A stretch of 64,000 nucleotides of DNA from Candidatus Thorarchaeota archaeon (GCA_048882325.1 JBHLRS010000013.1:25375-89374), one strand, 5' to 3'; shown: positions 3,001 to 42,841, numbered from the stretch's first letter. Program-made: numbers and translations. Notes: a model not told the origin generated them from the letters alone.

Positions 3001-3091
3001 AGTTGATGAAAGATTCAGTGATTGGACCCAGTGTTCCTATCATGAGAACTACTAGAAGAATCGAGAGCATCTTTTTCCTAGAATTGGTCAT
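1..3091 (-). CDS. Large secreted protein (>1030 aa, runs off window start) with probable peptidase C25 (gingipain-like) domain
   Basis: Absent from ORF track; translated by hand at both ends and in parts of the middle, same frame. ATG at 3091 gives signal peptide MTNSRKKMLSILLVVLMIGTLG. Later WSLSTHGT and IVILTACLLGG...GAVAVTAAPRTVY resemble the C25 His/Cys catalytic region. Confidence 0.65.
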   Translation of the reverse strand, partial: MTNSRKKMLSILLVVLMIGTLGPITESFINSGTVSISPSHTLSDVPTDQVPLSRVAFVAPDPNSYMDEFAYMATVPTSIFYHNNTQYISPLIYSEGSQSESWLLEDWSQYLETDGGVAQAIAVGDFTESELTQLQFDLGTKIYPRIRGSSAAEIASLLAMNEWRSSSTAVVALLKDEFGSPIVTTGSATYTFQNQASELSEFGGTVTYGAPSSISFTPPAWAGWIEGRFNWTGDELLTHELIDPNGVIVDYSVINQVFFSRQVGYVVTPVPLNFWFPKTSDGVWTMNLTRDISGTTNMDNEVLYHPGYTQSVLVPANAKWLNVSLLWDNAATNLNLALIDPDGRLAMWAPAGSILSNPGQEEIELPYPKAGDWTIIAAWMDATLEQNNIELSWAISRIDADIQTYMESASNAAVLASLLNAPLLYVYEDTIPAETSWALNYLGVTDVYLIDPTNHQDAGLAALLAAYGTLNNIVSYSGMTSMIKSLSGSHDIVVSIPTGDGDEFFAPAAFSAAAHGSPVFSLCGNSNELTTLAQETWAPYMIGPEIDNIYVIHKYENRAENGWYDERIPNKFSMMESEGSFESFLISRGAYNTTMNQPVVVVSPVSLIPLSFDRSLQSHFSPGRIPATTPALTSILINRGLLHRFLFLQADEADTALVSMYAYTDGEIYWDNNLDTHLLVQLDNTTDALGSAGFLIEQHVGQNEVFDTLDSQIALWSLSTHGTLTKLPRDPPDRPYGVGYISLRTADAPYGFEDSLTTRESPTDSNHLVNPVAFPEVSNHVVKSTDELEASIGNIGSPIVILTACLLGGTEMPLMLMEHGAVAVTAAPRTVYFQAAGMLSVVLAQELSEGNTVGDALSIGLSLTSADYSDPLVGRDPRDYGNQQVLFGDPSIRLYEPATSPHVSSVDPTDVPFDTHEPGQGIRAVAALGVSSYLPTSLAGLGASYEYYESSNYTEFLQLLPLRQLVIVEPDTLSDLSSSLSSSSGAFEAYVRDGGVLIVFGVTQSIPWFPWPISYDASGTGTSITIEDAT

Positions 3092-3189: not shown

Positions 3190-4047
3190 TTAATCTTCCT
3201 GAAACTCAAGCAGATCCTCATCAAACTCCTCATCATCATCATCAGATTCAGTTTCTTCAGGTAGCGCGTCAATGAGTTCATCAATCACACGACGTAGTCT
3301 CCTACGAGTGCTCTTGGGAACATCCCACATTTTTTGTTCAGCTCGTTCCAAAACCTCTCGTGCAATATCATAGATTTCAGAGTCATAGTAGTTCTGTGCG
3401 GCTTCCACAAAGAGTTCAGCTGCTTTTTTCTGGTTCCCTGCAGTTTCTGCAATATCACCTAGGAGTGAACAAGCATCAGCGACTCCAGATTTATCATCAA
3501 TCTCTCGATAGACCTTTAGAGCCTTCTTGATTGTGGTTTCAGCAGTTGTCCAATCCTCTTTATCAACGTAGGCAGCGCCCATGTCCATAATCACACTTGC
3601 CACACCTTGTTCATTTTCAAGTGATTTGTATGCTTTTTGGGCTTTCTTGAAGTGATCCATGGCAGTATCAAAACTGCCATGTCCTAGACTTGCCAATGCA
3701 AGACCATACAAGGCATCAGCTGCACCGCTGTCGTTGGATGACTTCTCAAACATCTTTCTTGCTGACTCAAGTGTGGAAATGGCTTCATCCCATTGTTCAA
3801 GATTAATCTGTGCGACCCCAAGGTTGTACATTGTGTCACAAATACCAGTTTCATCCTTCAAATCCTGATAGATCTTTAATGAGTCCTCGAAGCACTTGTG
3901 AGCCTCCTCAAATTCAGCGACTGACATGTAGATGTTTCCAACAGCATTGAACATCTTTGCAGCAGTATCATTGTCTCCAGCCTCTAGTGCGGCTTGTGCC
4001 TGTTCCAATAACTCAGCCGGGTCCATGTCTTCGATGTCATCACTCAT
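3190..4047 (-). CDS. Tetratricopeptide repeat protein with acidic C-tail
   Basis: Repeated TPR-like helices (e.g. YNLGVAQINLEQWDEAI). Start set to ATG 4047 after GGTGA. Confidence 0.85.
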   Translation of the reverse strand: MSDDIEDMDPAELLEQAQAALEAGDNDTAAKMFNAVGNIYMSVAEFEEAHKCFEDSLKIYQDLKDETGICDTMYNLGVAQINLEQWDEAISTLESARKMFEKSSNDSGAADALYGLALASLGHGSFDTAMDHFKKAQKAYKSLENEQGVASVIMDMGAAYVDKEDWTTAETTIKKALKVYREIDDKSGVADACSLLGDIAETAGNQKKAAELFVEAAQNYYDSEIYDIAREVLERAEQKMWDVPKSTRRRLRRVIDELIDALPEETESDDDDEEFDEDLLEFQED

Positions 4048-4169
4048 TTGGCTCACCTGCAAATATCAACGGTGGCGGCCTATATCGCTTTTGATTCTTT
4101 CTGAACGACTCAAACGATGTAGACGTGTACATAAGTAAAGCGCGGATTCAAGAAAACTAATTTGAAATA

Positions 4170-4910
4170 TTAGCGAGGCATCAGCAAAACTGGATTCTCG
4201 AGTAGTGGGCGTACTGCATCCTTCACCATAAACTGTTCATCACCCACTTGAACCTCTAGGAGTTTTCTAAGTTCAAACCTGCGAAGATATCCGACAGCTT
4301 GGTCTCGTTCTAAGTTAAGATCCTTCATCATCTTGCTTAGCCCTTTCTTGTCACCACTGAATTCAGCGAATTTTCCAAAGACTGAACTCCATTGCATCAT
4401 TACTAGATACAGCAATGTACGAAGCATGCTGTCAACATTTTCACCAGTCTTTGCTGATACAGGGAAGACTGGGAGTCCTGCAAGAAACCGAAGGTTCTTT
4501 CTTAGTTGGTCAATTGGTCTTGACTCAGGAATATCTTGCTTGTTTGCGGCCACTACACATGGCACACCAGGTAGGAAGAATGCAATCTCCCTGAAGAATA
4601 GCTTTGCTCTAGCATCAGATTCAGGGTCAACTGAATCTACTACAAAGATTATACCATCAGCTCCTTCACTGAGAATCTTTCTCATTGTGCGAAAACGAAG
4701 TAGACCCGGGGTTCCAAACATAAAGACGTTTAACCCATCTACATTTGCTAGACCGTGATCCATAGCTATTGTAGTACCCCTACGTTCAACATTGATACAT
4801 TGGCCATTGGTGATATGATGAATCATCTGGCTCTTACCAGCTTCATAGGGACCTGTAACGACTATCTTCATTCGACCACCAAATTCTAACTCCGAATCAG
4901 TGTGTTTCAA
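4170..4910 (-). CDS. MglA/CvnD-like small GTPase with C-terminal helical/wHTH extension
   Basis: GPYEAGKS P-loop, TTIAMDHG, FGTPG, NKQD, SAK motifs. Confidence 0.85.
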   Translation of the reverse strand: MKHTDSELEFGGRMKIVVTGPYEAGKSQMIHHITNGQCINVERRGTTIAMDHGLANVDGLNVFMFGTPGLLRFRTMRKILSEGADGIIFVVDSVDPESDARAKLFFREIAFFLPGVPCVVAANKQDIPESRPIDQLRKNLRFLAGLPVFPVSAKTGENVDSMLRTLLYLVMMQWSSVFGKFAEFSGDKKGLSKMMKDLNLERDQAVGYLRRFELRKLLEVQVGDEQFMVKDAVRPLLENPVLLMPR

Positions 4911-9594: not shown

Positions 9595-11349
9595 CTAGTC
9601 TTCTTTCGTTTCTTCCTCAGCTGAGTCAAGCAGTTTATCCAGTTCAGCTAAGGTTTCTCCGTTGAGTGGGAGATATGAATCGTGTTCATCCTCCTCGTTG
9701 ACGTCGGTAATTCCAAACCCACCCACAGAGCGATCTAAAGGACCTAGGATAGTCTCTAATTCCTCAAGTGATTCTGCGTCTATCTCTTCGGTTTCTATGG
9801 ATTCGTCTGCAACTGGCTTTGTTTCGTCACTCCCGATTGCTTGCAGTGCTGTGTCAATCTCCTCATCGGATGCTTGTTCAATTTCTGCTGCAATAATATC
9901 ATCAAAATCATCAGTTTCGAGGGCTTCAAAGATTATGTCCTTAGCCATTTTAATGGCATCTGTATTCTCTTCGACAACAAGTTCTGGACCAGCATCAACA
10001 GTTGTTTCTGAAACATCAATCTCGGGCCCCACTGGTTCCGGTTCTGGTATTGGTTCAGGTTCCGAATCAACATCGATTTCAACGGCTATCTCATCTCCAA
10101 TGCCGACCTCATCCACTGAAACCTCAATCTCTTCTTCAACAATGGGTTCTTCGACTTCAGGTGCTTCTTCCTCAACCGCTTCGAGTTCCTCCTCTTCCTC
10201 TTCTTCCTCTACTTCTTCGATTTCTTCTTCTATAATTTCATACTCTTCAAGGTCTTCAATGATTCTACCTTCTTCATCTATATAGACTTCCTCATATTCC
10301 TCCTCTTCTTCAACTTCAGAAACGGCAGTGGCTGCAGCTGCCTCTTCAGCAGCTAGCTCTTCCATTGCATCAACTTCAGCAATAGCTTCCTCAGTAGCAG
10401 TATCTGTGAATTTTAGGAGCTCAGCAGCGGGAAGATCAGGTAATGCAACTCCTACATATTGAGCAGCCGCGTTCATGAGAATGCGTAGCATCTCATCTCT
10501 ACGGTCTTTATCAATAGCGACCATGGGGTAGGTTGGGATTCCAAGAATTTTCTGGACAACTTCTGGTTTCATTGCATTTGGCTTGTCTTGCTTGTTTGCC
10601 ATGGCAAAAACAGGAACCTTTGGTGCATCCCTCTTAATCAGCTTCAGAATGTCCTTACTTATAATGACATTTCTCAGCGTTGAATCGCAAACCAGAAAGA
10701 TGACATCAGCTCCATGAAAGTAGAATCGCCAGAGCGTTCTGAATCGTTCCTGACCTGCAAAGTCCCACAGAACTAAGGAATAGTTGCCAAACCGGATGTT
10801 TTCGACAGTTTCAAGGTTTAATGCAATTGTTGGTACATACTGAAGTGGTGGCGTATCACCTAGAAGCAGGTGAAGTGTAGTTGTCTTTCCTACACCTCCC
10901 TCTCCAACGAGAGCAATCTTGAGCCTAGTTGTCACCGAGGGCTCGATGAGAAATCTATAGTTCTTGATTGCACCTTCAATGCCATCCTTTTTGAACTTCC
11001 TTCGAAGAGCCTTCAAAGCAATATCGATCTTTTCGTAGGTGTTTCCTTCGTCTTCACCTTTATCAGTCACGAAGACAAGAGTTGAGTCTTCAATCCAGTC
11101 CTTTCCAAGGAATTTGTGGTCACCTATAATCAGGGGTAACTCCTGTACTTGTCCGTGACCAGTTCTGAGTTCCTCTCTTGTTGAGATGAACTCCATCAGT
11201 GCTTCGTTGCTCACTTCTACTGGCCAGTACTGTGTCGATGCGATTATCTGTTGTGTGGAAATGCGGACAAGGAAAGTATTGTGGATCACTTCAGCATCAC
11301 CGGATTCATTCACTTCAAGAGGGTAGTACACTAATGCGCTTTTTATCAC
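9595..11349 (-). CDS. Arf/Rab-like small GTPase with N-terminal longin-like domain and very long acidic tail
   Basis: GEGGVGKT, PTIA, WDFAGQERFRTLW, NKQD motifs; ~140-aa N-terminal domain; ~270-aa Glu/Asp-rich C-terminus. Confidence 0.85.
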   Translation of the reverse strand: MIKSALVYYPLEVNESGDAEVIHNTFLVRISTQQIIASTQYWPVEVSNEALMEFISTREELRTGHGQVQELPLIIGDHKFLGKDWIEDSTLVFVTDKGEDEGNTYEKIDIALKALRRKFKKDGIEGAIKNYRFLIEPSVTTRLKIALVGEGGVGKTTTLHLLLGDTPPLQYVPTIALNLETVENIRFGNYSLVLWDFAGQERFRTLWRFYFHGADVIFLVCDSTLRNVIISKDILKLIKRDAPKVPVFAMANKQDKPNAMKPEVVQKILGIPTYPMVAIDKDRRDEMLRILMNAAAQYVGVALPDLPAAELLKFTDTATEEAIAEVDAMEELAAEEAAAATAVSEVEEEEEYEEVYIDEEGRIIEDLEEYEIIEEEIEEVEEEEEEEELEAVEEEAPEVEEPIVEEEIEVSVDEVGIGDEIAVEIDVDSEPEPIPEPEPVGPEIDVSETTVDAGPELVVEENTDAIKMAKDIIFEALETDDFDDIIAAEIEQASDEEIDTALQAIGSDETKPVADESIETEEIDAESLEELETILGPLDRSVGGFGITDVNEEDEHDSYLPLNGETLAELDKLLDSAEEETKED

Positions 11350-19660: not shown

Positions 19661-20203
19661 TTAAGAAATTGCTAGCGAATTCTTCGCAAGCATGTTGAAT
19701 GCCTCTTCGACGTTCTGACCATTCAGTGCGCTTGTTTCTAGATATCCGGTGAGATTATGCTCTCGGGTAAACTGTTCACCCATCTCACGAGTAATCACCC
19801 TATGTTCGATGAGGTCCACTTTGTTTGCTAGAAGAATAATCGGAATCCTTTCGCCTAAAGCATCTTCAGTTTCCTTAATCCACTTTGGTAGTTCTAACCA
19901 TGTACTCTTTCGGGTTGTATCGTACACAAGTAAAGCCCCTTTAGATCCTCGATAATAACTACCACGAATGAAATCGAATCTCTGCTGTCCAGCAAGGTCC
20001 CAAACCAAAAGTTTCACAACCACATTACGACCGTTCGCAGCTTCTACTTCTACCGTCTTGACTGCAAATTGTGAACCAATGGTCACGATATACTCTTCAG
20101 AGAACTTGTGTGTGAGAAATCTGTTGACTAGGGCAGTCTTTCCACTACCGCCAGCGCCAATCATGACGACCTTACGCATGTAGTCAAAGCCACCGCTACT
20201 CAA
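19661..20203 (-). CDS. Rab-like small GTPase
   Basis: GAGGSGKT, TIG, WDLAGQQRF, YYRG, NKVDL, ETSA. Confidence 0.93.
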   Translation of the reverse strand: MSSGGFDYMRKVVMIGAGGSGKTALVNRFLTHKFSEEYIVTIGSQFAVKTVEVEAANGRNVVVKLLVWDLAGQQRFDFIRGSYYRGSKGALLVYDTTRKSTWLELPKWIKETEDALGERIPIILLANKVDLIEHRVITREMGEQFTREHNLTGYLETSALNGQNVEEAFNMLAKNSLAIS

Positions 20204-32693: not shown

Positions 32694-34547
32694 TCAAGAG
32701 GAGAATTCTGAGACTATCAGGTCAGTTCTTGTGGCAAAGAATATGTATGTCGGAATGGATGCCAAGAGAATCACTCCGATCATTGTCACCATGACTGCGA
32801 CAATTGACAATGGAAGATATGCCAATGATGGAACAGCGGCCTCAGGTATTAACATATAGATACTAAGAAGTGTGCTGACAATGAGTGCAGGAATTCCAGC
32901 TCTCAGTCCAACTTCTAGGCCTTCTGCAATCATCACCTTAGCAATGAAAGATGGTTTTGCTCCTACTGACCGCATGATTATGTAATCTCGAAGACGACCG
33001 AACACTGAAACTAGTAGATAGTTCATTAGACTCAGGAACGCGCTAAGTAGAGTAACAAGAGCAAGTGGATTCAAGAGTGCCCAGATGGCATCAATTGTTT
33101 CCAGATTTCCTTCTAGTACATCCTGTTGTCTGAAGATACCAAATCCATAACTCTCAGCAAGAATCTCAATTTCACTAATGAGTGAGTCATCATAATCTTC
33201 AAGCTGAACCAAGACCAAGTTGGTCCCTGAAACCCCAAATGAATTCTGCAGCTCTGAAAGCTCCATCAGGGCCATCATACCACCATTTAGAATGTCAAAA
33301 GCCTGTGCTTTGATTTCGAGTGTATTTCCTTGTACCTCAAGGTTTTGTATGAGAGGATCTTCGAAGAGGTCACTAGCCATCTTTCCCCCAATCCATACCT
33401 GTTCTGTGTTCTCAGGAATACGACCTTCATAATACCAATCAGAGATTGATGAATCCCAATTGATACCAACTAGTACCGCATTTGATGTTCGGTCTTCTCC
33501 AACAATCTCATACTGCTCCAGCTCTTCATTCCAGACAGTAACTCGTTTCGCTTCAATTTCAGAATAGACCACAAGACGTTGTTCAACAGCGTACACACCT
33601 AAAATATCTCCCAGGTCTGTTGTTAATGCACTGGGTATCATATCTGAACTGCTAAGATAGTTGAAACTGTTGTCAAGAGGAGAACCATAGAGCGAGTATG
33701 AGTCGTAGTAGGAATCAAGAAGGTCAGGATTCCCAACTGCGACAATGTTTTCTCCCATTGAACGTGTCACGTATGAACTTGAGGTTGTGTGAACCACTCC
33801 ACCACCAATCCAGAGAATAGAAGCAATCGTAAAACTCAGGAAAAGAGACAGTACCGTCCGCCTTGTACCTTTCAATCTTCTTCCTGTTCCTTTTGTGGCA
33901 ATACGGAAAGAAAGGCCAAAACTATCAAGAAATCCTGAAACACGGACCTTTGTCCCGACATCGGGGTTCAGAGCGAGGGAGGGAGACTCTTGAACTGTGT
34001 CATAGATTGGCTTTTGAGCTGAAAAGTACCCGGCGATAACAAGGACCACGGCTAAAACTGACAATTGAATAATTGGAAAGGAATTGGTCAGTTGAATATT
34101 GGGAATGAAACCACTTAGCCAAATTATTCCAGCTATGTACAGAATTGTACCGAACGACAGTCCAAGTACAATACTTGCCAACAGCATTATCACTGATTGA
34201 GCCATAAAGAAATCAAAGATCGTGTCTAGGAGTGTTCCTATTGATTTCATCAAACCAATATCGCGACGCCTAGTCACCATCTCCAACGAGATTGTCGTGG
34301 ACACCACTGCCGCACCCAGAACAAAAACAAGGAGTAGGATTGTCCAAACAAAGGTCGAGAAGAAAGTTCCGAAAGATGAAGACAGAGCACTTGCTACTGA
34401 GAAAGTAGATACGTCAAGTAGTACATTCCCAAATAGAAACACAAACGTGGTCGCCGTGACTACACTCGTTAATGAGATGAGAGTGAGAGTTGTCCGAAAT
34501 GGACGTCGTTTCAGATCTCGTGAGGCAAAAATCTGATGTTCAGACAT
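32694..34547 (-). CDS. ABC transporter permease (FtsX/MacB, two permease domains)
   Basis: RRRDIGLMKSIG and RLRDYIIMRSVGA with an extracellular domain between. Confidence 0.88.
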   Translation of the reverse strand: MSEHQIFASRDLKRRPFRTTLTLISLTSVVTATTFVFLFGNVLLDVSTFSVASALSSSFGTFFSTFVWTILLLVFVLGAAVVSTTISLEMVTRRRDIGLMKSIGTLLDTIFDFFMAQSVIMLLASIVLGLSFGTILYIAGIIWLSGFIPNIQLTNSFPIIQLSVLAVVLVIAGYFSAQKPIYDTVQESPSLALNPDVGTKVRVSGFLDSFGLSFRIATKGTGRRLKGTRRTVLSLFLSFTIASILWIGGGVVHTTSSSYVTRSMGENIVAVGNPDLLDSYYDSYSLYGSPLDNSFNYLSSSDMIPSALTTDLGDILGVYAVEQRLVVYSEIEAKRVTVWNEELEQYEIVGEDRTSNAVLVGINWDSSISDWYYEGRIPENTEQVWIGGKMASDLFEDPLIQNLEVQGNTLEIKAQAFDILNGGMMALMELSELQNSFGVSGTNLVLVQLEDYDDSLISEIEILAESYGFGIFRQQDVLEGNLETIDAIWALLNPLALVTLLSAFLSLMNYLLVSVFGRLRDYIIMRSVGAKPSFIAKVMIAEGLEVGLRAGIPALIVSTLLSIYMLIPEAAVPSLAYLPLSIVAVMVTMIGVILLASIPTYIFFATRTDLIVSEFSS

Positions 34548-35292
34548 TACGGGTTAGCTCTCCTAGCTCCATCTTATATTGGTGGACATTCGATTGATTG
34601 ATTATTCCCTCGTCATGAGTCATAACAATCACAGCCTTTCCTTGTTTGTTCAAATCACGAAGCAGGTCTCGAATCATTTGTCCACTTTCACCATCAAGAT
34701 TGGCTGTGGGCTCATCTGCGAGAATGATAGGAGGATCATTAGCCATAGCGCGTGCTATCGCGATTCGTTGTTGTTCGCCAGAACTGAGCTGCCACGGAAG
34801 ATGGTCAGCACGATCCTCCAACTCAACTCTCTCGAGAAGCTTCATTGCCTCTTCTCGTAACAGTGAATGACTCCGCTCATAAAGCTGCATAGGAAACATC
34901 ACATTCTCAACAGCAGTTAAGGTGGAAACTAGATTATAGCTCTGAAAGATGAAGCCTGTGTTGTTGAGTCTGAAGGATGCACGAAATGATTCATCATAGT
35001 CATTGATGGGAACATCCATGACAAACACCCGACCATTTGTTGGGAGATCTATTGCTCCGATGATATTCAGGAGAGTTGTCTTTCCAGATCCTGACCTTCC
35101 CGAGATTACGACAAAATCACCGGCATCGATAATAAGATTGACATCACGCACAGCCCCAATTGTCGTTTTCCCCAATGAGAAGGCTCTCGAAACATTCTGA
35201 AGGTCCACTGCGTGACGGACTTCTTCAAGATCTTCTGCATCCAAATCGTCCCGAGTATAGTCGACCGCATCTAGATAATCGTCATCAGCCAT
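34540..35292 (-). CDS. ABC transporter ATP-binding protein
   Basis: GRSGSGKT, LSSGEQQR, DEPTANLD; start reset to ATG 35292. Confidence 0.93.
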   Translation of the reverse strand: MADDDYLDAVDYTRDDLDAEDLEEVRHAVDLQNVSRAFSLGKTTIGAVRDVNLIIDAGDFVVISGRSGSGKTTLLNIIGAIDLPTNGRVFVMDVPINDYDESFRASFRLNNTGFIFQSYNLVSTLTAVENVMFPMQLYERSHSLLREEAMKLLERVELEDRADHLPWQLSSGEQQRIAIARAMANDPPIILADEPTANLDGESGQMIRDLLRDLNKQGKAVIVMTHDEGIINQSNVHQYKMELGELTRNV

Positions 35293-35355
35293 TACTTGCC
35301 ACCTTGATAGGTGGCGAATGACTCTCAACCCAAGATAAGCGTAAGGGTTGAACAA

Positions 35356-36171
35356 CTAATGTACCAAAATGGCCTGAACATCAAGCGCTGAACGGGCCCA
35401 GTCTGTGAGTAGTACAGGTTTCTCTCTACCAAACACCTTCACTGATCGAAGAATATCCGCATCAAGAAGACTACTGATATAGTAGGAGATTAGGCTCTTA
35501 TCCACATCTAGTGTTCTACTTATCACGGCTTGAGTTGTCTGACCATTAGATGCACATTCACTGAGGATTGATCCCACAGTGGGATTACGCGCCATGGCTG
35601 TAAGAAGCATCACCTTTTCATCAGAGGAGTAGTCAGGTGTGAATAAGTGTCGAACATTGCCATTCCTGAGTGATACAACCTGTCCATCCTCTTCGAGCGC
35701 ACGAAGATGGTACTGGAGTGCGCCCATGGCACATCCAATAATTCGATGAAGTTCGCGAAGGTGAATACCAGGATTAGCTGATACCTCTCCGAGGATTCGA
35801 TCACGAAGTTTCTGAAGTCGACGGTCTTCTCTCCTGTCAATTGAGACAGTTCCAATCGCAAGAACGAGAAATCCTAAATCAAGTGCAGTGAAAAGCGAAT
35901 TAGACCAGGCTATGTTAGTGCCTCCAGAGTTCCAAGTAAATACCTTAGCATCAATAGAGAGGTTTTCAATAATAGTAGATTTCCCAATACAGAACGACAG
36001 TGCCTCAAATTGTGCGAGGTTATCATTTGCACTCAGTGTGGGAGACAAGTCCTGAGCCAATGGCTCTACACCACCAAAACCCGCTCCAGATAGAACTACA
36101 CCTAGAACGCCCCATGAGAGGAGGGCAAGTGAGAATCCAACTAGGATATGTTTGGTGAACCGTCTATTCAT
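35356..36171 (-). CDS. Membrane-anchored double-wHTH transcriptional regulator
   Basis: N-terminal hydrophobic segments; NPGIHLRELHR...LQYHLRALE and a second HTH. Confidence 0.8.
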   Translation of the reverse strand: MNRRFTKHILVGFSLALLSWGVLGVVLSGAGFGGVEPLAQDLSPTLSANDNLAQFEALSFCIGKSTIIENLSIDAKVFTWNSGGTNIAWSNSLFTALDLGFLVLAIGTVSIDRREDRRLQKLRDRILGEVSANPGIHLRELHRIIGCAMGALQYHLRALEEDGQVVSLRNGNVRHLFTPDYSSDEKVMLLTAMARNPTVGSILSECASNGQTTQAVISRTLDVDKSLISYYISSLLDADILRSVKVFGREKPVLLTDWARSALDVQAILVH

Positions 36172-36243: not shown

Positions 36244-36798
36244 CTACGTGGCTCCACGTGCTGGATAGGTCATTGTAATTTTGAATGTGCAGCTCTCTTC
36301 ACCAGCAGACATACAAGTGTCTTCTGTGACGATCAACTTCTCATACTCAATTCTATTGAAGTCGGTTAAGTACTCAAGAACTGCCTCTACGAATCCCTTC
36401 AAGAAGAAACAAGATGGTTCTTCAGCTTCATAACCCGAAGCATATGGATTGTCACCAATTTCTATAATCGCTTCTTCATCCAACCAAAGTTTGTAGAGTT
36501 TAGCAATCCGAACATCACCAAATGGAACAATCAAAGTTTCGAGAGCCATTTTGATGAACTCGATGATTCCCTTAAAATCACCAGGAGGTTTTTGCTTCCC
36601 AATCTTGAAGTATTCTCTTTGAGCTTCAAGTCCTGCAAGACGTCCAGCTGAGTAATAGAGGTCCTTTACTCGATCTGGGAACATGACTGCAATCCTGCTC
36701 CCGAGTTTGTTCCAGGTCTTCGCGAAGAATGCAACCATTAAGTCACGTTCCTTGAGTCGACCTTGCCACCAAGGAATCACCTTATCTTGATCTGACAT
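36244..36798 (-). CDS. V4R-domain (Bet3/TRAPP-related) protein
   Basis: YSAGRLAG, DNPYA, PSCFFLKGFVEA, EDTCMSAGEESCTF. Confidence 0.85.
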   Translation of the reverse strand: MSDQDKVIPWWQGRLKERDLMVAFFAKTWNKLGSRIAVMFPDRVKDLYYSAGRLAGLEAQREYFKIGKQKPPGDFKGIIEFIKMALETLIVPFGDVRIAKLYKLWLDEEAIIEIGDNPYASGYEAEEPSCFFLKGFVEAVLEYLTDFNRIEYEKLIVTEDTCMSAGEESCTFKITMTYPARGAT

Positions 36799-36866
36799 TT
36801 CTAGGCCTCGTTGTCACTGACAGATGATGAAATGATGTTTAATTGCTTTATGTGTGTGTGATACAT

Positions 36867-37340
36867 CTATACTAGACGGACATTCCATACGCATGCATCT
36901 GCACCGGTGGCTTGGCTCATCTCTTGGAAGACCTTTGCATCAACACCTTTGAACTCCAGAATAGACTGGAGTATTCCACTAAAGACCTCACAGTACCCAA
37001 AACCCCGCATTCCTTCAAGGTTTACTTCTTGGCACCACACGCACTTGTCATCTGTAATCCTTACTGATCCGCGAGCTGTTTTCATATCAACATCTTTGGG
37101 TTTCTTATCGAATAAGGTGCGATATACAATTTCAATCAGCTTGGCAACATCCTCGCGGGTTGTGACATTATCCTTTGTTTTTTCAACAATCTCTGTGTTA
37201 AGGTAGATTTGCTGACCAATCTCGCATCCAAGGTCTCGTAGTTTCTGATTTGCTTCTTCGATGTTTTCTGTTTCAGACAAAACCTTCTCGACATAATAGG
37301 AGTATAAGCTAATTAACAAAGGATTTTCAATCTTGGGCAT
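36867..37340 (-). CDS. Bet3/TRAPPC3-like (V4R-related) protein
   Basis: KLRDLGCEIGQQI resembles the Bet3 GxxIG helix; CVWC, YCEVFSGIL, ACVW. Confidence 0.75.
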   Translation of the reverse strand: MPKIENPLLISLYSYYVEKVLSETENIEEANQKLRDLGCEIGQQIYLNTEIVEKTKDNVTTREDVAKLIEIVYRTLFDKKPKDVDMKTARGSVRITDDKCVWCQEVNLEGMRGFGYCEVFSGILQSILEFKGVDAKVFQEMSQATGADACVWNVRLV

Positions 37341-37363
37341 TATATGTACACCTTCTCTGAAAT

Positions 37364-38368
37364 CTAGAGGGTCTTTCCGATTAATTTCAGACCGTGTTTT
37401 CTGTATTTGGCAATTGTTTGTACAACCCTAGGTAGTGGAACACTCAATTCTTCGGCAATCTGTTCAGTAGTTCGAGTGCCATCACACAACCTAATGATGT
37501 TTTGATCATTATTCGCGACTTTCTTCATATCACCCTCATAATGTGGACATTTAACATATCGTCCCATTGCACTAGTCGCTGATGCTGAAACTTCCTCACC
37601 CTCTGTAAGTTGCGGAACCGTGATTATACCTCGTGAAGCTCCCCACTTCAGTAAATCTATTACCCTATTGTTTGGCTGAAACATTGAGTCTGCAATTTTC
37701 TCTACACTGTTGGCACCATCAACCAGCATTAGAACATCAAAGCCAAAGTTTCGATAGAGTTTCTTCATCTCTGTGTACAGCTTTGAGTCCAGAGAGAGTG
37801 CGTTAGAATACCTTGGACCTCTCTCAGGGACAGTAGTAGGCTGAACATTGAATGACTCTGGTGGTGGAAGATCCTCAACTGGAGTGGGAGATTCTTCCAC
37901 AACTGGTGGTGTGGCTACTTCAGGTTCAGGTCGTGGAGTTGTATCAGGTGCTTCAGTGGATTCGATAGAAGCTGCATTGATTGCGATGCTCTCTAGAACC
38001 TGCAGATTGGATTCTACTGATTCCTCGAACTCCTCTGGAGGAGGTGGTAGTTCAATTCCTTCTAACAATCTGAGAACGTTCTTTGTCTTAGCAATAGCCA
38101 GTCCAAGCTGGAGCTCTGGTACGTATAGAACAGTCAAAATCCAGTTGTCATCAACGGGGGAGAGAACAACAAGCCCACGATCAGTATCAATGGTCATAAG
38201 TCGTAAATCACTCTTATAGAGGGCTATGCTATCCTTCACTCGTGGGAATAGTTCATCCGGAAATGCAAAGCTGACAAAAGGTCTACCAACCTTTGTCATC
38301 AATGAATAACCCAATACTTGGTCATCGAATCTCAACTTGGATAAAGCGCGTTCCAAATCTTTGGACAT
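37364..38368 (-). CDS. Roadblock-like domain + Pro/Glu linker + two wHTH domains
   Basis: VLGYSLMTKVGRP...LGLAI roadblock-like N-terminus; LVDGANSVEKIA and LCDGTRTTEQIA wHTHs; start reset to ATG 38368. Confidence 0.7.
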   Translation of the reverse strand: MSKDLERALSKLRFDDQVLGYSLMTKVGRPFVSFAFPDELFPRVKDSIALYKSDLRLMTIDTDRGLVVLSPVDDNWILTVLYVPELQLGLAIAKTKNVLRLLEGIELPPPPEEFEESVESNLQVLESIAINAASIESTEAPDTTPRPEPEVATPPVVEESPTPVEDLPPPESFNVQPTTVPERGPRYSNALSLDSKLYTEMKKLYRNFGFDVLMLVDGANSVEKIADSMFQPNNRVIDLLKWGASRGIITVPQLTEGEEVSASATSAMGRYVKCPHYEGDMKKVANNDQNIIRLCDGTRTTEQIAEELSVPLPRVVQTIAKYRKHGLKLIGKTL

Positions 38369-38515
38369 AATGTATACCTCACGGACACTGGTCTGAATAA
38401 TAATGGCTGTCCCTGCTATTCTCTCGAAGTTCGTCTGAAAAGGATTGTGGTGGTGAAGCAAGTTGAGACTCGTCAAAAACGGTTAAGAGGGGTTCGAGTC
38501 TGCCGATTAACTACA

Positions 38516-39082
38516 ATGAAGAACTTTGTTGGCGGTCTACTAGCGGTTTTCATAGGTTCTATGGTCATAGTAATGTTCCTGGGACTTACGCAACCGGTTT
38601 ATCCAGAACCGTTCAACATTTTCTGGTTCCTTTTTGCAGGGAGTTATGCTATACAGACAACGCTCCTCAACCCACTCACGCTAATCAGTGTTGGGCTCTA
38701 TATTCTCACATGGATTGTCATGGGATTGGTTATCGCACCATTTTCAAAACCTGGATGGAATACAGTCAGATCTGCACTTTGGGTTGGTCTAATTCATGCA
38801 GTCCTGGCACTAATGTCAACCCTCTTCACAGAACCTGGATTTTGGGAGAGCGCCAGTAGAAACTATCAATTACTCACCAAGTTTACAACTTCGCTTCTAC
38901 TAAGCATTCTTTCGTTACCAGCAGCAATACCAGCAGCAATAATCGTTGAAAGAGTTGGTCGTGAGGCTGAACCACCAATTCCATCCAAGATTGAAACAGT
39001 TTGTGAATGTGGAGCAGTTTTCAAATCGAAACCAATGATGTGTTCGGAATGTGGAAGGATATTGAATAAACCCACAGAATAG
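38516..39082 (+). CDS. Membrane protein with C-terminal Zn ribbon
   Basis: 4-5 TM segments; CECG...CSECG. Confidence 0.75.
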   Translation: MKNFVGGLLAVFIGSMVIVMFLGLTQPVYPEPFNIFWFLFAGSYAIQTTLLNPLTLISVGLYILTWIVMGLVIAPFSKPGWNTVRSALWVGLIHAVLALMSTLFTEPGFWESASRNYQLLTKFTTSLLLSILSLPAAIPAAIIVERVGREAEPPIPSKIETVCECGAVFKSKPMMCSECGRILNKPTE

Positions 39083-39610
39083 CTAGCGATCTCTTGTTAT
39101 GGCTCCACCAAGGAGGCCACCTATAGCACAAGCAATAGCAGGATATATTGTTCCTTCAAGTGCAGCTTGCATGATGATGAGTGAGCCTTGTTGGAAGATC
39201 CCACCAATTCCAGCAAAGGAAGAGGATATCATGAAGAAAAGTAACCATGTAAGAAATGCACCAATAACAGCTGAGAAGACAGCAGAAAGAATTCCAGGAA
39301 GTATCTCTTTAGTCACTAATCCAGCAATGAGACCACCTGTGCCCCATGCTAACCACATCAGGACCGTACCGCCTGGTGCACCGTAACCAACAAGAGAACC
39401 AAGACTTGTTGATCCAAGTATCGCTGGGGCAGGGAACAGGATTGTACCTGTTACAGCTAGACGTTTCTCGAGCTCTCTACTAGCGAGAAAGTCATCTACA
39501 ATAGTTGATGCAATGAGATCATTTGGCATAAAGGATCCGAACATCAGAACGATGAATGCAAGTGCGAATGCTGTTATCAAACCTAGGAGCGTGCCTAAAC
39601 CTTGACCCAA
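39083..39610 (-). CDS. Gly-rich integral membrane protein
   Basis: Four or more TM segments with GGLIAG/GGLLGG motifs. Confidence 0.75.
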   Translation of the reverse strand: MGQGLGTLLGLITAFALAFIVLMFGSFMPNDLIASTIVDDFLASRELEKRLAVTGTILFPAPAILGSTSLGSLVGYGAPGGTVLMWLAWGTGGLIAGLVTKEILPGILSAVFSAVIGAFLTWLLFFMISSSFAGIGGIFQQGSLIIMQAALEGTIYPAIACAIGGLLGGAITRDR

Positions 39611-39707
39611 TTGAGGTCCTCCGTTTGTGTTGGTTCTATACCCCTATTTCTAGTTATTAGGTTTTATACCTATGCCGGATGGTTATCTTGAGAGTTGAAG
39701 CATCAGG

Positions 39708-40211
39708 TCACAATAGTGATAGTGTCCAGGTGCACGCCTCATCACCCAACGCCCTACAGGACTCCTGAAAGCTCTCAGCTTGGAATCCTCTGAGCTTCAT
39801 GACAGCGTCAAACACACCACTCACTATGACACAGTATTGCAATCCAGGCATGTCAGTGATATGCACTCCAGCGCATATTGGACAATCCGCATCAGAGAAC
39901 TTGATTGTTCGTTTGTCAGGACTTACTGAAATATCTGTGAATGTTTGCCCTGAATTCACCTTGTAAGCAAGTTGAAGAGTATTGGCGAACTCATGGAACT
40001 GACCAGCGTGATCTCGAATTCGATCAGCGTAGTCCATCAGCAGGGTTTCACCGACTCTAAAGCCAATGTCCTTCATCTTACGGTTAATCTCATCAACTGT
40101 TTCACTGGTGCTCATTAGCAGGTTCATAAGTTCCCGATAACTAGCTTGAAACAGAACTTTAGAGACCTTGTCCGTCATGAAATTCCAAGCAATCTTACCT
40201 TTTACACCCAT
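39708..40211 (-). CDS. Bet3/TRAPPC3-like (V4R-related) protein, paralog of 36867-37340
   Basis: KMKDIGFRVGETLLMDY, CPIC, YCVIVSGVF, ESCRALGDEACTW; start reset to ATG 40211. Confidence 0.78.
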   Translation of the reverse strand: MGVKGKIAWNFMTDKVSKVLFQASYRELMNLLMSTSETVDEINRKMKDIGFRVGETLLMDYADRIRDHAGQFHEFANTLQLAYKVNSGQTFTDISVSPDKRTIKFSDADCPICAGVHITDMPGLQYCVIVSGVFDAVMKLRGFQAESFQESCRALGDEACTWTLSLL

Positions 40212-40231
40212 TGTTACTTCGACCTCCAGTT

Positions 40232-41209
40232 TCAAAATCTTGATGTCTTGTCTGTACGAATGAATTTGACTTCCTTCCCACGATATGGGACAACACATTG
40301 CAACGCTTCGAAATAGGGTATTCCAAGTTCAGTAGCAATTTCTTGCAATGTCCTCTTTCCATCACATAGCTCAAGCACGGGACGATGTTTCTTCTTCATT
40401 TTGTCAATCTTTCCTTCGAATAATGGTAACTCGATAATTTCCTTCTGGCTTAGCTCTTGTTCCTCTGGACACTCGATTCGAAGAACTGAATTAGATACAC
40501 ACCATTTCACGATTTCGATGATCTTTTCAACAGGTCTAGCTAATTGCTCCGCAATCTTATAGACTGTCATTTTTTCATCGACTATCAGAAGTACATCAAT
40601 GCCAACATTGGCAAATACCCTCTTTATAGCAGTGTTAAGCTGCGTTTCCAAGGTCACAGTAGGTTTGTAGTTCTCACTTCTGTGTACTACACATCCATGT
40701 CGAACTTCAATTTCCTCAGGTGGCACCACTGGAACATCAGAAGGTTTTATTTCAGATGGTTCAGATTCAAGAGCGACTTCTGGAGCTAAACCTTGAGGTG
40801 TATTTTGAGTTGCTGATGCGACCTCAGTGACTTCTTCTTCAAGTGAAATCAGTTGTTCTTCCTCCTCAACACCTAGACCGGCAGGGGGTGGAGGAAGGTC
40901 AACTTGCACAAGAAGATCAACAACAGCTTTGGTTCGTGATAGAGCCCCACCAAGTTGGAAGTCCGGTTCGAATAGTACAGCAAGAACCCATTTAGGATTG
41001 ACTCTTGCCAGAATAACTATTCCTTCACTTGTCATTGTGTTAACGAGTTTTAGATCACTCCCGTGTATTCGGAGAGTTCCTTTGATTTGTGGAAGAACCT
41101 CATCTGGTAAAGAGAACGAGAGGAAAGGATGTCCATCACTGGTGATTAGTGCATACCCACTAACTGCTTCATCAAACTTCAGTTTAGTAAGTACACGCTC
41201 CAGTTGCAA
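40232..41209 (-). CDS. Roadblock-like + two wHTH protein, paralog of 37364-38368
   Basis: LERVLTKLKFDEAVSGYALITSDGHPF aligns with LERALSKLRFDDQVLGYSLMTKVGRPF; LCDGKRTLQEIA. Confidence 0.72.
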   Translation of the reverse strand: MQLERVLTKLKFDEAVSGYALITSDGHPFLSFSLPDEVLPQIKGTLRIHGSDLKLVNTMTSEGIVILARVNPKWVLAVLFEPDFQLGGALSRTKAVVDLLVQVDLPPPPAGLGVEEEEQLISLEEEVTEVASATQNTPQGLAPEVALESEPSEIKPSDVPVVPPEEIEVRHGCVVHRSENYKPTVTLETQLNTAIKRVFANVGIDVLLIVDEKMTVYKIAEQLARPVEKIIEIVKWCVSNSVLRIECPEEQELSQKEIIELPLFEGKIDKMKKKHRPVLELCDGKRTLQEIATELGIPYFEALQCVVPYRGKEVKFIRTDKTSRF

Positions 41210-41256: not shown

Positions 41257-42357
41257 TCACTGAACTTTAAGTAACTTTGTACCATCTCCCGACAAAGGAG
41301 GATTGGACTCTAAATATTTCACTATTTCAGGTATTTGTGGATGAGTTGCTGAAGAAGAAGACACATAGAGCGATGCTATCGCATTAGCAAGAATTAGTCT
41401 ATCTCTCGGAGTTAAGCTAAGGAGAGTCCCATAGACATCTCCTGCATTCCAAGCATCTCCAGCACCACAAACAACTTTGCTTTCAACGGCAAACGCTGGA
41501 ACTGCAGTAACATCATTCTCGTCTATTGTTGCAGCGTAATGCGGTGTGTGTAAATCAACCCGGACACCCGACATACTGAAGATTAATTGGGCTCCTTCGA
41601 TCCAGAGATCAGGCTTTGTAGGTAAGTCCTTCCAACGGTTTTTGTCCTCTGTTAAAGATTGGACTATCCATCCAACTTCGTTCTCATTTAAGCCTATCAC
41701 ATCTAGGAGGCCAGTTTTGATAACATGCTCTACAAGCTTAGGAACGATCCCTGGGTTTCCCGATGGATCGCCCATATCTAGGAAAGTCACAGAATCAGAG
41801 GAATCCTTTATTCTCTGAAACAATTCCTGAGCTAGGTCAGCACCCAGTTTGTTGTGATTGAGATTTACCAAAGCAACGATACCACTATCCATTATGACAT
41901 CGAGATCGTTCTCAGTCAAATCAGAGAATGCAAACTCGGAGGCAGAACCGCTATCACTGATCATTAGATTAACACTTCTCCCCTGATATTTTGTTTCAAT
42001 GGAAACTGTAGAGGAGAGCCTTCCATTAGTATGAACATGACTCAGATCGAGATTTGAATCAACAAGCGTCCTGAGAAGGGATGCGCCATTTCCATCTGTC
42101 GTGACAATTAGTTTTGGACTAAGGCCTAATGTGTGGAGAGCAGCGGCAGTATTGACTGCATTTCCTCCTCTGCGAATAAACTGCTGATTATCAAGAAGAT
42201 TGCCACCTCCTTGATCGGCAAGTCGTTTCAAGCCATCTATTAGAGTGTCTAGTGATTCGTACATCACAAAATGATCTACAAAAAAGTCTGGAAGTACAAC
42301 AGGGTACTTCACCTTAGGGGGGTTTTGCAGGACGGAAATGAGTTGAGTGTAGTCCAA
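41257..42357 (-). CDS. PfkB family carbohydrate kinase
   Basis: GGNAVNTA, NENE, GAGDAWNAG. Confidence 0.88.
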   Translation of the reverse strand: MDYTQLISVLQNPPKVKYPVVLPDFFVDHFVMYESLDTLIDGLKRLADQGGGNLLDNQQFIRRGGNAVNTAAALHTLGLSPKLIVTTDGNGASLLRTLVDSNLDLSHVHTNGRLSSTVSIETKYQGRSVNLMISDSGSASEFAFSDLTENDLDVIMDSGIVALVNLNHNKLGADLAQELFQRIKDSSDSVTFLDMGDPSGNPGIVPKLVEHVIKTGLLDVIGLNENEVGWIVQSLTEDKNRWKDLPTKPDLWIEGAQLIFSMSGVRVDLHTPHYAATIDENDVTAVPAFAVESKVVCGAGDAWNAGDVYGTLLSLTPRDRLILANAIASLYVSSSSATHPQIPEIVKYLESNPPLSGDGTKLLKVQ

Positions 42358-42391: not shown

Positions 42392-42841
42392 CTACACCTT
42401 TCGAAGAGCTGCTTTGACCATAGCAGTGATACGATCTTCTTCAATACCGGTCTTTTTAGCGACTTTTGTAATATCGCAATATGCTAGGTCTTCAAATGTC
42501 TGAATGCCAGCTTTCACTAACAATGGAACATCGGTCTTTTTGACAGCGCGAAGTGAACCCAAGTCATCTTTGGGAGCGGCCCCTTTCACTTGAGCTGGTG
42601 CAGCTTCTTCAGCCAAAGAAGCGACAATTTCCTCAAGGTCCTTGATGTATTGCTTGAGGGCATCTACATTCTCAGGATGGACTGTCTTTCGTCGAAGGTC
42701 AACAATCAGTCCCATCTGCCGAGCTTCATTTATGGTGAGACCAGCTTGAGCAGTTTCTTCACTACTAAAACCACGTCCTCTCTTAGGGCGACCATCTCTT
42801 GGAGATCTAACTGTTGGCTCAGCGATAATATCAAAGCTCAT
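42392..42841 (-). CDS. rpl13e: 50S ribosomal protein L13e with C-terminal HhH-like extension
   Basis: RGRGFS.EE...AGL...GL.VD.RRKT.H.ENV; extra C-terminal LVKAGIQTFEDLA. Confidence 0.9.
   Translation of the reverse strand: MSFDIIAEPTVRSPRDGRPKRGRGFSSEETAQAGLTINEARQMGLIVDLRRKTVHPENVDALKQYIKDLEEIVASLAEEAAPAQVKGAAPKDDLGSLRAVKKTDVPLLVKAGIQTFEDLAYCDITKVAKKTGIEEDRITAMVKAALRKV

Follow-up and report, generated by a model that had tools for sequence, protein, structure and literature searches.

NPRL2 and NPRL3 (Npr2 and Npr3 in yeast) are paired subunits of GATOR1/SEACIT, the GTPase-activating protein (GAP) for RagA/Gtr1, and the V4R domains of MsvR, PoxR and DmpR are small-molecule or redox sensors. 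NPRL2 is a paralog of NPRL3, and the two form a heterodimer by their longin domains; next after the longin domain comes a TINI domain, and Arg78 of NPRL2 is the GAP arginine finger (PMC8534245). The core of TRAPP consists of two longin subunits, TRAPPC1 and TRAPPC4, flanked by two TRAPPC3 (PMC10152722). The conservons of actinobacteria combine a roadblock protein and a DUF742 winged-helix protein with a GTPase, and the DUF742 protein MfpC is a GEF (guanine nucleotide exchange factor) (PMC11343762). A TRAPPC3 from Thorarchaeota (Thor-TRAPPC3, PDB codes 7YH2 and 7YH3) is described as a homodimer with a Zn(Cys)4 site and cavities in its interior, for which ligand binding is proposed; its relatives bind palmitate or phenols (Tran et al. 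2024, PMC10933270). Bet3/V4R homologues were therefore already known in Thorarchaeota, as the initial annotation of the present locus had stated. This locus belongs to a stretch of 64,000 nt from Candidatus Thorarchaeota archaeon (GCA_048882325.1 JBHLRS010000013.1:25375-89374), called the window below, and all positions are counted within it. At 36244-41209 it contains two gene pairs, cassettes A and B, each encoding a large protein, Big, and a Bet3-like zinc protein (Big-A/Bet3-A and Big-B/Bet3-B).

The seven open reading frames (ORFs) of this region were confirmed at the coordinates collected in Table 1, and four of the products (167, 334, 184 and 175 residues) are identical letter for letter to entries in the protein collection. 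Big-A and Big-B align with a residue identity of 36% (E 6e-64), Bet3-A and Bet3-B with one of 23% (E 3e-26). Judging from these alignments, the two Big/Bet3 pairs are paralogous and have been kept as pairs after an old duplication, so that the two units named in the initial annotation are borne out. Within each pair the genes are closely spaced. The spacer between Big-A and Bet3-A is 20 nt long and contains a GGAGG ribosome-binding site; that between Big-B and Bet3-B is 23 nt long, also with a ribosome-binding site. Such spacing supports translational coupling, as does the overlap described below for Freyarchaeia. In the host genome, which is 93% complete, the two PF04051 genes and the two Big genes are confined to this locus.

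In a collection of 5.8 billion proteins 281 homologs of Big were found, and those with a named source are from Thorarchaeota except for one labelled Sifarchaeia; among 1.84 billion representative clusters Big accounts for just 26. A block of 12 genes, which starts with the L13e homolog and ends with the ABC permease, keeps its gene order in about 70 species genomes of Thorarchaeota. This collinearity alone is weak evidence for linkage, because unrelated flanking genes are equally syntenic, and synteny within the family is in itself not proof of a functional connection. The family PF04051 occurs in 78 of the 85 genomes of the window's family and sporadically elsewhere; in the largest sampled family it is found in none of 135 genomes.

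Other Asgard lineages have the pairing as well. The sister family f2 (genome G025), which belongs to the same taxonomic order, has a single Big-Bet3-V4R cassette, with the V4R gene after Bet3 and with other flanks. Its Big is closer to Big-B (45%) than to Big-A (33%), and the cassette is divergent from an adjoining small GTPase and a TPR protein. In Candidatus Freyarchaeum deiterrae two Bet3-like genes come after the gene of a 252-residue protein, and in four further Freyarchaeia genomes the partner precedes Bet3 with an overlap of 4 nt, which gives this order in five Freyarchaeia genomes in total. In Candidatus Borrarchaeum two Bet3-like genes precede a 224-residue protein with a similar winged helix. 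The Freyarchaeum partner has a Big-like C-terminal winged helix (hhalign probability 93%; DUF742 17.3 bits, E 0.0045, cut-off 27). Its N-terminus is roadblock-like and that of the Borrarchaeum partner weakly longin-like, both from secondary-structure patterns and weak Pfam matches only, and comparison of the Big profile with the two partners by hhalign detects the last winged helix and nothing more. Since gene orders and flanks differ in four families, we argue that the pairing of Big-like with Bet3-like genes is probably under selection. The repeated one-to-one linkage first noticed in the window is thus found both within the Thorarchaeota and, in rearranged form, in f2, Freyarchaeia and Borrarchaeum. 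It is a real, conserved and testable pairing of known parts, while its function is a proposal.

Another arrangement is seen in family f4 (locus L152, G038:C127). There a protein of about 410 residues with a C-terminal V4R/TRAPP domain (3-1226, minus strand) is divergent from two tandem Rab-like GTPases (1440-2054 and 2287-2841, plus strand). Fused forms of Bet3 were sought with a single-protein query, which gave none, and with a profile query, which gave one narrow family of about 407 residues, from f4. The N-terminal half of the f4 protein is longin-like by eye, but it was rejected as Big-like: its hhalign comparison with the Big profile is empty and its Atlas scores are 0.80 or lower.

Both Bet3-like proteins match PF04051 above the curated cut-off of 27 bits (Bet3-B 43.1, Bet3-A 28.3), and none of 14 control genomes contains a match. 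Over its full length Bet3-B aligns with 7yh3 (E 1.5e-91) and 7yh2 (E 2.3e-91) and is, by this similarity, the direct ortholog of Thor-TRAPPC3; Bet3-A aligns with 7yh3 (E 1.3e-20) and with eukaryotic TRAPPC3 chains (E about 1e-5). The Bet3 fold anticipated for the two genes can accordingly be accepted. The zinc-site cysteines, which in Bet3-B are C100, C103, C117 and C150, are kept in 99-100% of the orthologs of both paralogs (60-69 orthologs), and in Bet3-A five cysteines are kept in 98-100% of 60 orthologs. In the tree of Bet3 sequences the clades of A, B, f2, Freyarchaeia and Borrarchaeum form a polytomy, which leaves the duplication undated against those lineages.

The third gene, V4R-3, matches PF02830 with 36.3 bits (curated cut-off 31), and the best PDB match of its profile is MJ1460, an archaeal V4R protein (E 0.0065). 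It is the most conserved gene of the block and has three invariant cysteines. The V4R domain assigned to it initially is real. However, because BLASTP finds no detectable similarity to Bet3-B (E 0.27) and the V4R-3 clade stands apart from every Bet3-like sequence with a support of 100/100, the sequence comparison places it as a superfamily relative and not as a third copy of Bet3.

The fold of the Big proteins was assessed with an AlphaFold2 model of Big-A made from 23 homologs, with a predicted local distance difference test score (pLDDT) of 82, rising above 90 for residues 1-100. In this first section the order of elements is α-β-β-α-β-β-β-α, and an acidic, disordered linker and then a pair of winged helices follow. 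The N-terminal domain matches Asgard roadblock crystal structures, LAMTOR2/p14, MglB and MglC with Z from 13.1 to 11 and a root-mean-square deviation (rmsd) of 2.2-2.9 Å over about 100-107 residues. The individual values are Z 13.1 for 9jue (rmsd 2.3 Å, 104 residues), 13.0 for LAMTOR2 and 11.8 for MglB. The model starts with a helix, in the roadblock order, and not in the longin order β-β-α-β-β-β-α. In sequence searches this fold is undetected by Pfam: at E up to 1 neither Big-A nor Big-B gives a match to PF03259 (roadblock), both are missing from the 17 matches in the host genome at E up to 0.1, and the profile of the Big family reaches the Thorarchaeota roadblock 7f8m with E 0.088. The roadblock fold claimed for the large proteins is nevertheless clear from the model.

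The C-terminal half of Big-A was modelled separately (residues 165-325, pLDDT 86) and aligned to all 48,161 PDB representatives. The best matches are GATOR1 chain 8fw5_B (Z 10.6, rmsd 2.0 Å over 72 residues, chain residues 165-236) and SEA-complex chain 8adl_S (Z 10.4), against a generic background of Z 8 or less for winged helix-turn-helix (wHTH) domains of transcription factors. The top seven Foldseek matches of this model are all GATOR1/SEACIT chains. With the full-length model of Big-A, GATOR1 and SEA-complex chains of 360-400 residues align over about 360 columns (E about 1.5e-6). We take the matched chains to be NPRL2/Npr2 and NPRL3 from their chain length, not from entry names. Pfam yields weak winged-helix matches alone for Big (HTH_47, Sigma70_r4 and DUF742); the last scores 16.4 bits in Big-A (E 0.0085), below its cut-off of 27. 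On the models, Big is shaped like NPRL2/NPRL3, but with a roadblock domain instead of the longin domain at its N-terminus. This description fits better than that of a longin-type TRAPP subunit. The several winged helices noted at the same time are present in Big, and their number is two.

Constraint on Big-B is highest in its roadblock domain; in the whole protein 107 positions are invariant among 70 orthologs. Residues G28-R29-P30 of Big-B are invariant and located in the β1-β2 loop, and in Big-A the same loop carries an invariant G26-x-P28. The GP motif of longin GAPs is carried on the β1-β2 loop as well (PMC12290439). By analogy, the G-R-P / G-x-P loop of Big may be a candidate counterpart of the GP motif and of Arg78 in NPRL2. 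Directly after the roadblock domain, at residues of about 105-111, the motif L-P-P-P-P is invariant in both Big paralogs of about 60-70 species, and f2 has it too. A partner that binds polyproline could dock there. Four cysteines of Big-A (C173, C237, C247 and C282), three of them invariant and one 93% conserved, are all in the winged-helix half. Only the cysteine aligned with C282 is shared by Big-B (C295), while C274 of Big-B, 90% conserved, faces an Ile/Val column in Big-A. Judged from this conservation, the cysteines of Big-A may form a metal site or a redox switch particular to the A paralog.

The comparison with the described systems gives a partial likeness in each case. Bet3-B shares the four-Cys zinc site of Thor-TRAPPC3, and its paralog Bet3-A also matches eukaryotic TRAPPC3 chains; the difference is that Bet3-B is here one half of a conserved gene pair which is present twice. 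Term searches of the published work (PMC10933270) brought up no statement on the gene neighbours of Thor-TRAPPC3. The protein was crystallised without a known partner or function, and the pairing with Big names a candidate partner. The TRAPP core and the present locus both combine two proteins of the roadblock/longin superfamily with two of the Bet3 family, apparently from duplication. However, the Big platform consists of roadblock and winged helices and not of sybindin-type longins, and an assembly with TRAPPC1/TRAPPC4-type longin subunits and Rab GEF activity would be hypothetical for this locus. With NPRL2 and NPRL3 the Big proteins share the order of parts, in which a domain of the roadblock/longin superfamily at the N-terminus precedes the winged helices, and the occurrence as two paralogs; they differ in the roadblock topology of the N-terminal domain. 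GATOR1 lacks the Bet3-like partner which accompanies Big, and a DEPDC5-like partner was not seen at the Big locus.

The conservons (CvnA-D, MfpB-E; PMC11343762, PMC13343842) combine a roadblock protein with a DUF742-type winged helix; in Big a roadblock domain is fused in one chain with winged helices whose DUF742 matches are weak and below cut-off. Membrane proteins are encoded nearby in both. Unlike the conservons, the present cassettes have no GTPase within 16 kb and no histidine-kinase-like sensor among the neighbours scanned, and a GTPase adjoins Big only in f2; the conservons in turn are without a Bet3/V4R partner. V4R-3 is a canonical V4R protein with conserved cysteines, like the V4R sensors (MJ1460; MsvR, PoxR and DmpR), but it stands alone, with neither a DNA-binding nor an AAA+ domain fused to it. 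A description of the Big/Bet3 pairing was not found in the searchable literature, where the crystal-structure paper, reviews and one remark on an NPRL2-like family were found. According to this remark the family occurs in most metagenome-assembled genomes of Thorarchaeota (Liu et al., 10.1101/2020.10.19.343400); the family meant may be Big or, more probably, a second gene pair on host contig C2. This pair (locus L005, 847-1905 and 1987-3264, both on the plus strand) encodes tandem proteins with a longin domain of FUZ/MON1 type and a double winged helix. One of them has a faint HTH_NPRL3 match, and what the pair has in common with Big-A is the C-terminal winged helices only (E 1e-3).

Between the two cassettes lie the convergent genes TM1 and TM2, whose stop codons abut (39082/39083). 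The initial annotation had correctly placed this membrane pair and the zinc ribbon of one member: C186, C188, C199 and C202 of TM1 are invariant in 67 orthologs. Pfam and NCBIfam contain no match for TM1 or TM2. Homologs of TM1, multi-pass proteins of about 200 residues with the same C-terminal zinc ribbon, are present in 154 of 400 sampled Asgard genomes, and TM2 and TM1 are neighbours in at least five families (f1, f2, f12, f13 and f15), often near L13e. In Thorarchaeota, and likewise in each of the five f12 genomes examined, a Big-like gene adjoins them, f12 being without Bet3; in f2 they are on another contig than the cassette. Because the pair is widespread without Big, unlinked in f2 and beside Big-like genes in two families only, it is an older and widespread Asgard unit, linked to Big in some lineages only, and not a fixed part of the cassette. 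These are the two proteins which the initial annotation took as candidate membrane anchors.

Direct support exists for the folds and the paralogy, for the operon-like spacing and for a linkage that is conserved although rearranged across Asgard lineages, and from them the following scheme is proposed. Big, built of a roadblock domain, a flexible acidic linker and two NPRL2-type winged helices, would be co-produced with the Bet3/TRAPPC3-like zinc protein, both being encoded in one tight operon of two genes, and the two proteins would bind each other. Big-A and Big-B would form homo- or heterodimers by their roadblock domains, in analogy with all characterised roadblock and longin platforms (MglB, LAMTOR, NPRL2/3 and TRAPPC1/4). 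Bet3-A, Bet3-B and V4R-3 would be dimeric subunits with cavities which bind a ligand or lipid. Such a hetero-oligomer could regulate, as GAP or GEF, one of the 34 small GTPases of the Ras superfamily in the host genome, which also contains 17 roadblock matches, and it might respond to a hydrophobic ligand. That a roadblock platform with Bet3-like ligand-binding subunits regulates a small GTPase is a tentative proposal, although a plausible one, drawn by analogy. The ligand-sensing signalling module, which the initial annotation gave as its second option, is conceivable as well. For GTPase regulation in particular the pointers are the analogy of folds, the precedent of the conservons, two anecdotal adjacencies (f2 and f4) and the G-R-P loop of Big-B. 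The complex itself and its stoichiometry are what we infer, and so are the identity of a GTPase as client and the direction in which it would be regulated.

Several observations weigh against this proposal. In a single-contig chromosome of Thorarchaeota cassette B is alone at the locus, and an ortholog of Big-A was not found elsewhere in that chromosome. Some lineages can thus do without cassette A, and a heteromer that needs both A and B cannot be the general case. The crystals of Thor-TRAPPC3 contain a homodimer of this protein alone (PMC10933270). Pfam NPR2 and NPR3 give no match in Big at E up to 1, and on the models the likeness of its N-terminal domain to NPRL2 or to TRAPPC1/4 is one at the superfamily level. 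The second winged helix of Big (WH2) is basic, with an isoelectric point (pI) of 9.0-9.5, and from its composition DNA binding is possible. The three GTPases announced for the window are all present (4170-4910, 9595-11349 and 19661-20203), each of them at least 16 kb from the cassette, and none was found beside the cassettes of Freyarchaeia and Borrarchaeum. A co-occurrence of the f2-adjacent GTPase with Big-Bet3 was considered and rejected as not specific, because this GTPase family is present in 281 of the 400 sampled genomes. It should be added that Asgard GTPase regulators are described as hard to match to their clients, because they are rarely placed in operons (PMC10933270).

An alternative explanation is a split transcription regulator which senses a ligand or redox state. 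Big would bind DNA by its basic WH2 and use the roadblock domain for dimerisation; the Bet3-like and V4R proteins would be sensor subunits, and the targets would be neighbours such as the membrane pair or the downstream genes of the HTH protein and ABC exporter. We regard this as unlikely, but it has the pI of WH2 on its side, and many wHTH transcription factors do match the C-terminal model of Big-A (Z 6-8); these are, however, clearly outscored by the GATOR1/SEACIT chains, in which the domains make protein-protein contacts and do not bind DNA. Likewise, V4R-3 and Bet3-A give matches to NCBIfam MsvR (NF053755), but these are weak, with 18.9 and 17 bits where the cut-off is 220. A transcription factor of MsvR type was rejected as a candidate on these scores and on the position of HTH and V4R on separate genes. 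Orthologs of V4R-3 carry the annotation 'predicted hydrocarbon binding protein', and ligand binding is favoured for Thor-TRAPPC3 by Tran et al. (PMC10933270). The spacer between Big-B and TM1 contains conserved elements, though non-palindromic ones. The ABC exporter and HTH protein are encoded directly downstream throughout the window's family, but not beside the cassettes of other lineages. In addition, the long acidic disordered linker and the invariant LPPPP would be unusual in a simple repressor.

It is also conceivable, if rather unlikely, that the proteins form a scaffold for handling a ligand or lipid without a GTPase client, in which Bet3-like and V4R dimers hold a hydrophobic molecule and Big tethers them, by its winged helices or its polyproline motif, to partners or to TM1/TM2. 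The cavities of Thor-TRAPPC3 and the palmitate or phenols bound in its relatives (PMC10933270) would suit such a role, as would the adjacency of TM2/TM1 to Big-like genes in Thorarchaeota and f12 and the fact that no GTPase consistently adjoins the cassette. However, the roadblock domain is the part of Big-B under the strongest constraint, most characterised roadblock platforms act on GTPases, and TM1/TM2 are found in many genomes without Big. Finally, the genes could be neighbours by inherited synteny alone, without joint action. The collinearity of the entire block, which includes the unrelated L13e, PfkB and ABC genes, agrees with this; the recurrence of the pairing in Freyarchaeia, Borrarchaeum and f2 with other orders and flanks, the very short spacers or overlap, and the retention of both copies as pairs after an old duplication make it highly improbable.

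The conserved pairing, in which a Bet3-like protein accompanies an NPRL2-shaped roadblock protein, provides a concrete set of proteins for co-expression and assay. It bears on the question whether two regulator architectures regarded as eukaryotic hallmarks, TRAPP and GATOR1, already worked together in archaea. A further step would be to see in Big/Bet3 the survivor of an ancestral Asgard 2+2 complex, a duplicated roadblock/longin-winged-helix platform with duplicated Bet3-family subunits acting on a small GTPase, ancestral to both the TRAPP core and the NPRL2/NPRL3 half of GATOR1; this we consider improbable.

Table 1. Positions of the cassette genes, their neighbours and other features of the window
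Feature	Position	Strand	Length (aa)	Description
TPR/SNAP-like protein	3190-4062	-		Follows the GTPase at 4170-4910
Small GTPase	4170-4910	-		C-terminal extension; about 31 kb from the cassette; ortholog (56% identity) of the f2-adjacent GTPase
ABC permease	32694-34547	-		Context downstream of V4R-3; membership uncertain
ABC ATPase	34540-35355	-		Context downstream of V4R-3; membership uncertain
Double-HTH protein	35356-36171	-		Membrane-bound; Pfam HTH_HVO_0163_N and MarR-type matches; context, membership uncertain
V4R-3	36244-36798	-	184	Classic V4R domain, PF02830
Bet3-B	36867-37340	-	157	Ortholog of the crystallised Thor-TRAPPC3, PF04051
Big-B	37364-38368	-	334	Paralog of Big-A with the same architecture
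Element CAATCCTTTTCAGA	38434-38447	-		About 65 nt upstream of Big-B; conserved, non-palindromic; possibly a promoter element
TM1	38447-39082	+		Longest ORF, probable start ATG 38516; multi-pass membrane protein with C-terminal four-Cys zinc ribbon
TM2	39083-39610	-	175	Glycine-rich multi-pass membrane protein, from hydropathy
Bet3-A	39708-40211	-	167	TRAPPC3/Bet3-like, PF04051
Big-A	40232-41209	-	325	Roadblock domain 1-100, LPPPP, disordered acidic linker about 112-163, pair of winged helices about 170-325
PfkB kinase	41257-42357	-		
L13e homolog	42392-42841	-		Pfam L13e

The genes of the double-HTH membrane protein and the ABC exporter are collinear with the cassette across the window's family. 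They were considered as members of the system and are left as context, since outside this family, in f2, Freyarchaeia and Borrarchaeum, the cassettes do not have them as neighbours.

In the divergent spacer between Big-B and TM1 (38369-38515) the elements ACCACAATCCTTTTCAGAC and CCTCTTAAC are conserved across about 60 species, and neither is palindromic; no operator-like palindrome was seen in this spacer. The core CTTTTCAGA is present in 48 of 60 orthologous Big-B/TM1 spacers, and a second good copy was not found in the window. A scan with a sigma-70 promoter and terminator model, which is not applicable to an archaeon, gave no enrichment. A/T-rich, TATA-like stretches are located within the longer spacers preceding TM2, V4R-3 and the HTH gene.

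The small GTPase at 4170-4910 and the TPR protein after it are in a row with a protein of more than 1030 residues (2-3091, minus strand) without Pfam matches. The order of GTPase and TPR protein with a long downstream ORF recurs in f2, where the GTPase abuts the Big-Bet3-V4R cassette. In the genomes of the window's family that were checked, the orthologous GTPase is located about 31-43 kb from the cassette. The 584-residue protein at 9595-11349 (minus strand) has a GTPase domain of Arf/Roc type at about residues 141-273 and, besides, large N- and C-terminal regions without assignment. The L13e homolog (Pfam L13e, E 9.7e-10) has a C-terminal extension with DUF4332/HhH-like matches (DUF4332 E 2.3e-4, HHH_5 E 0.0045), and L13e is close to the TM2/TM1 pair in several Asgard families.

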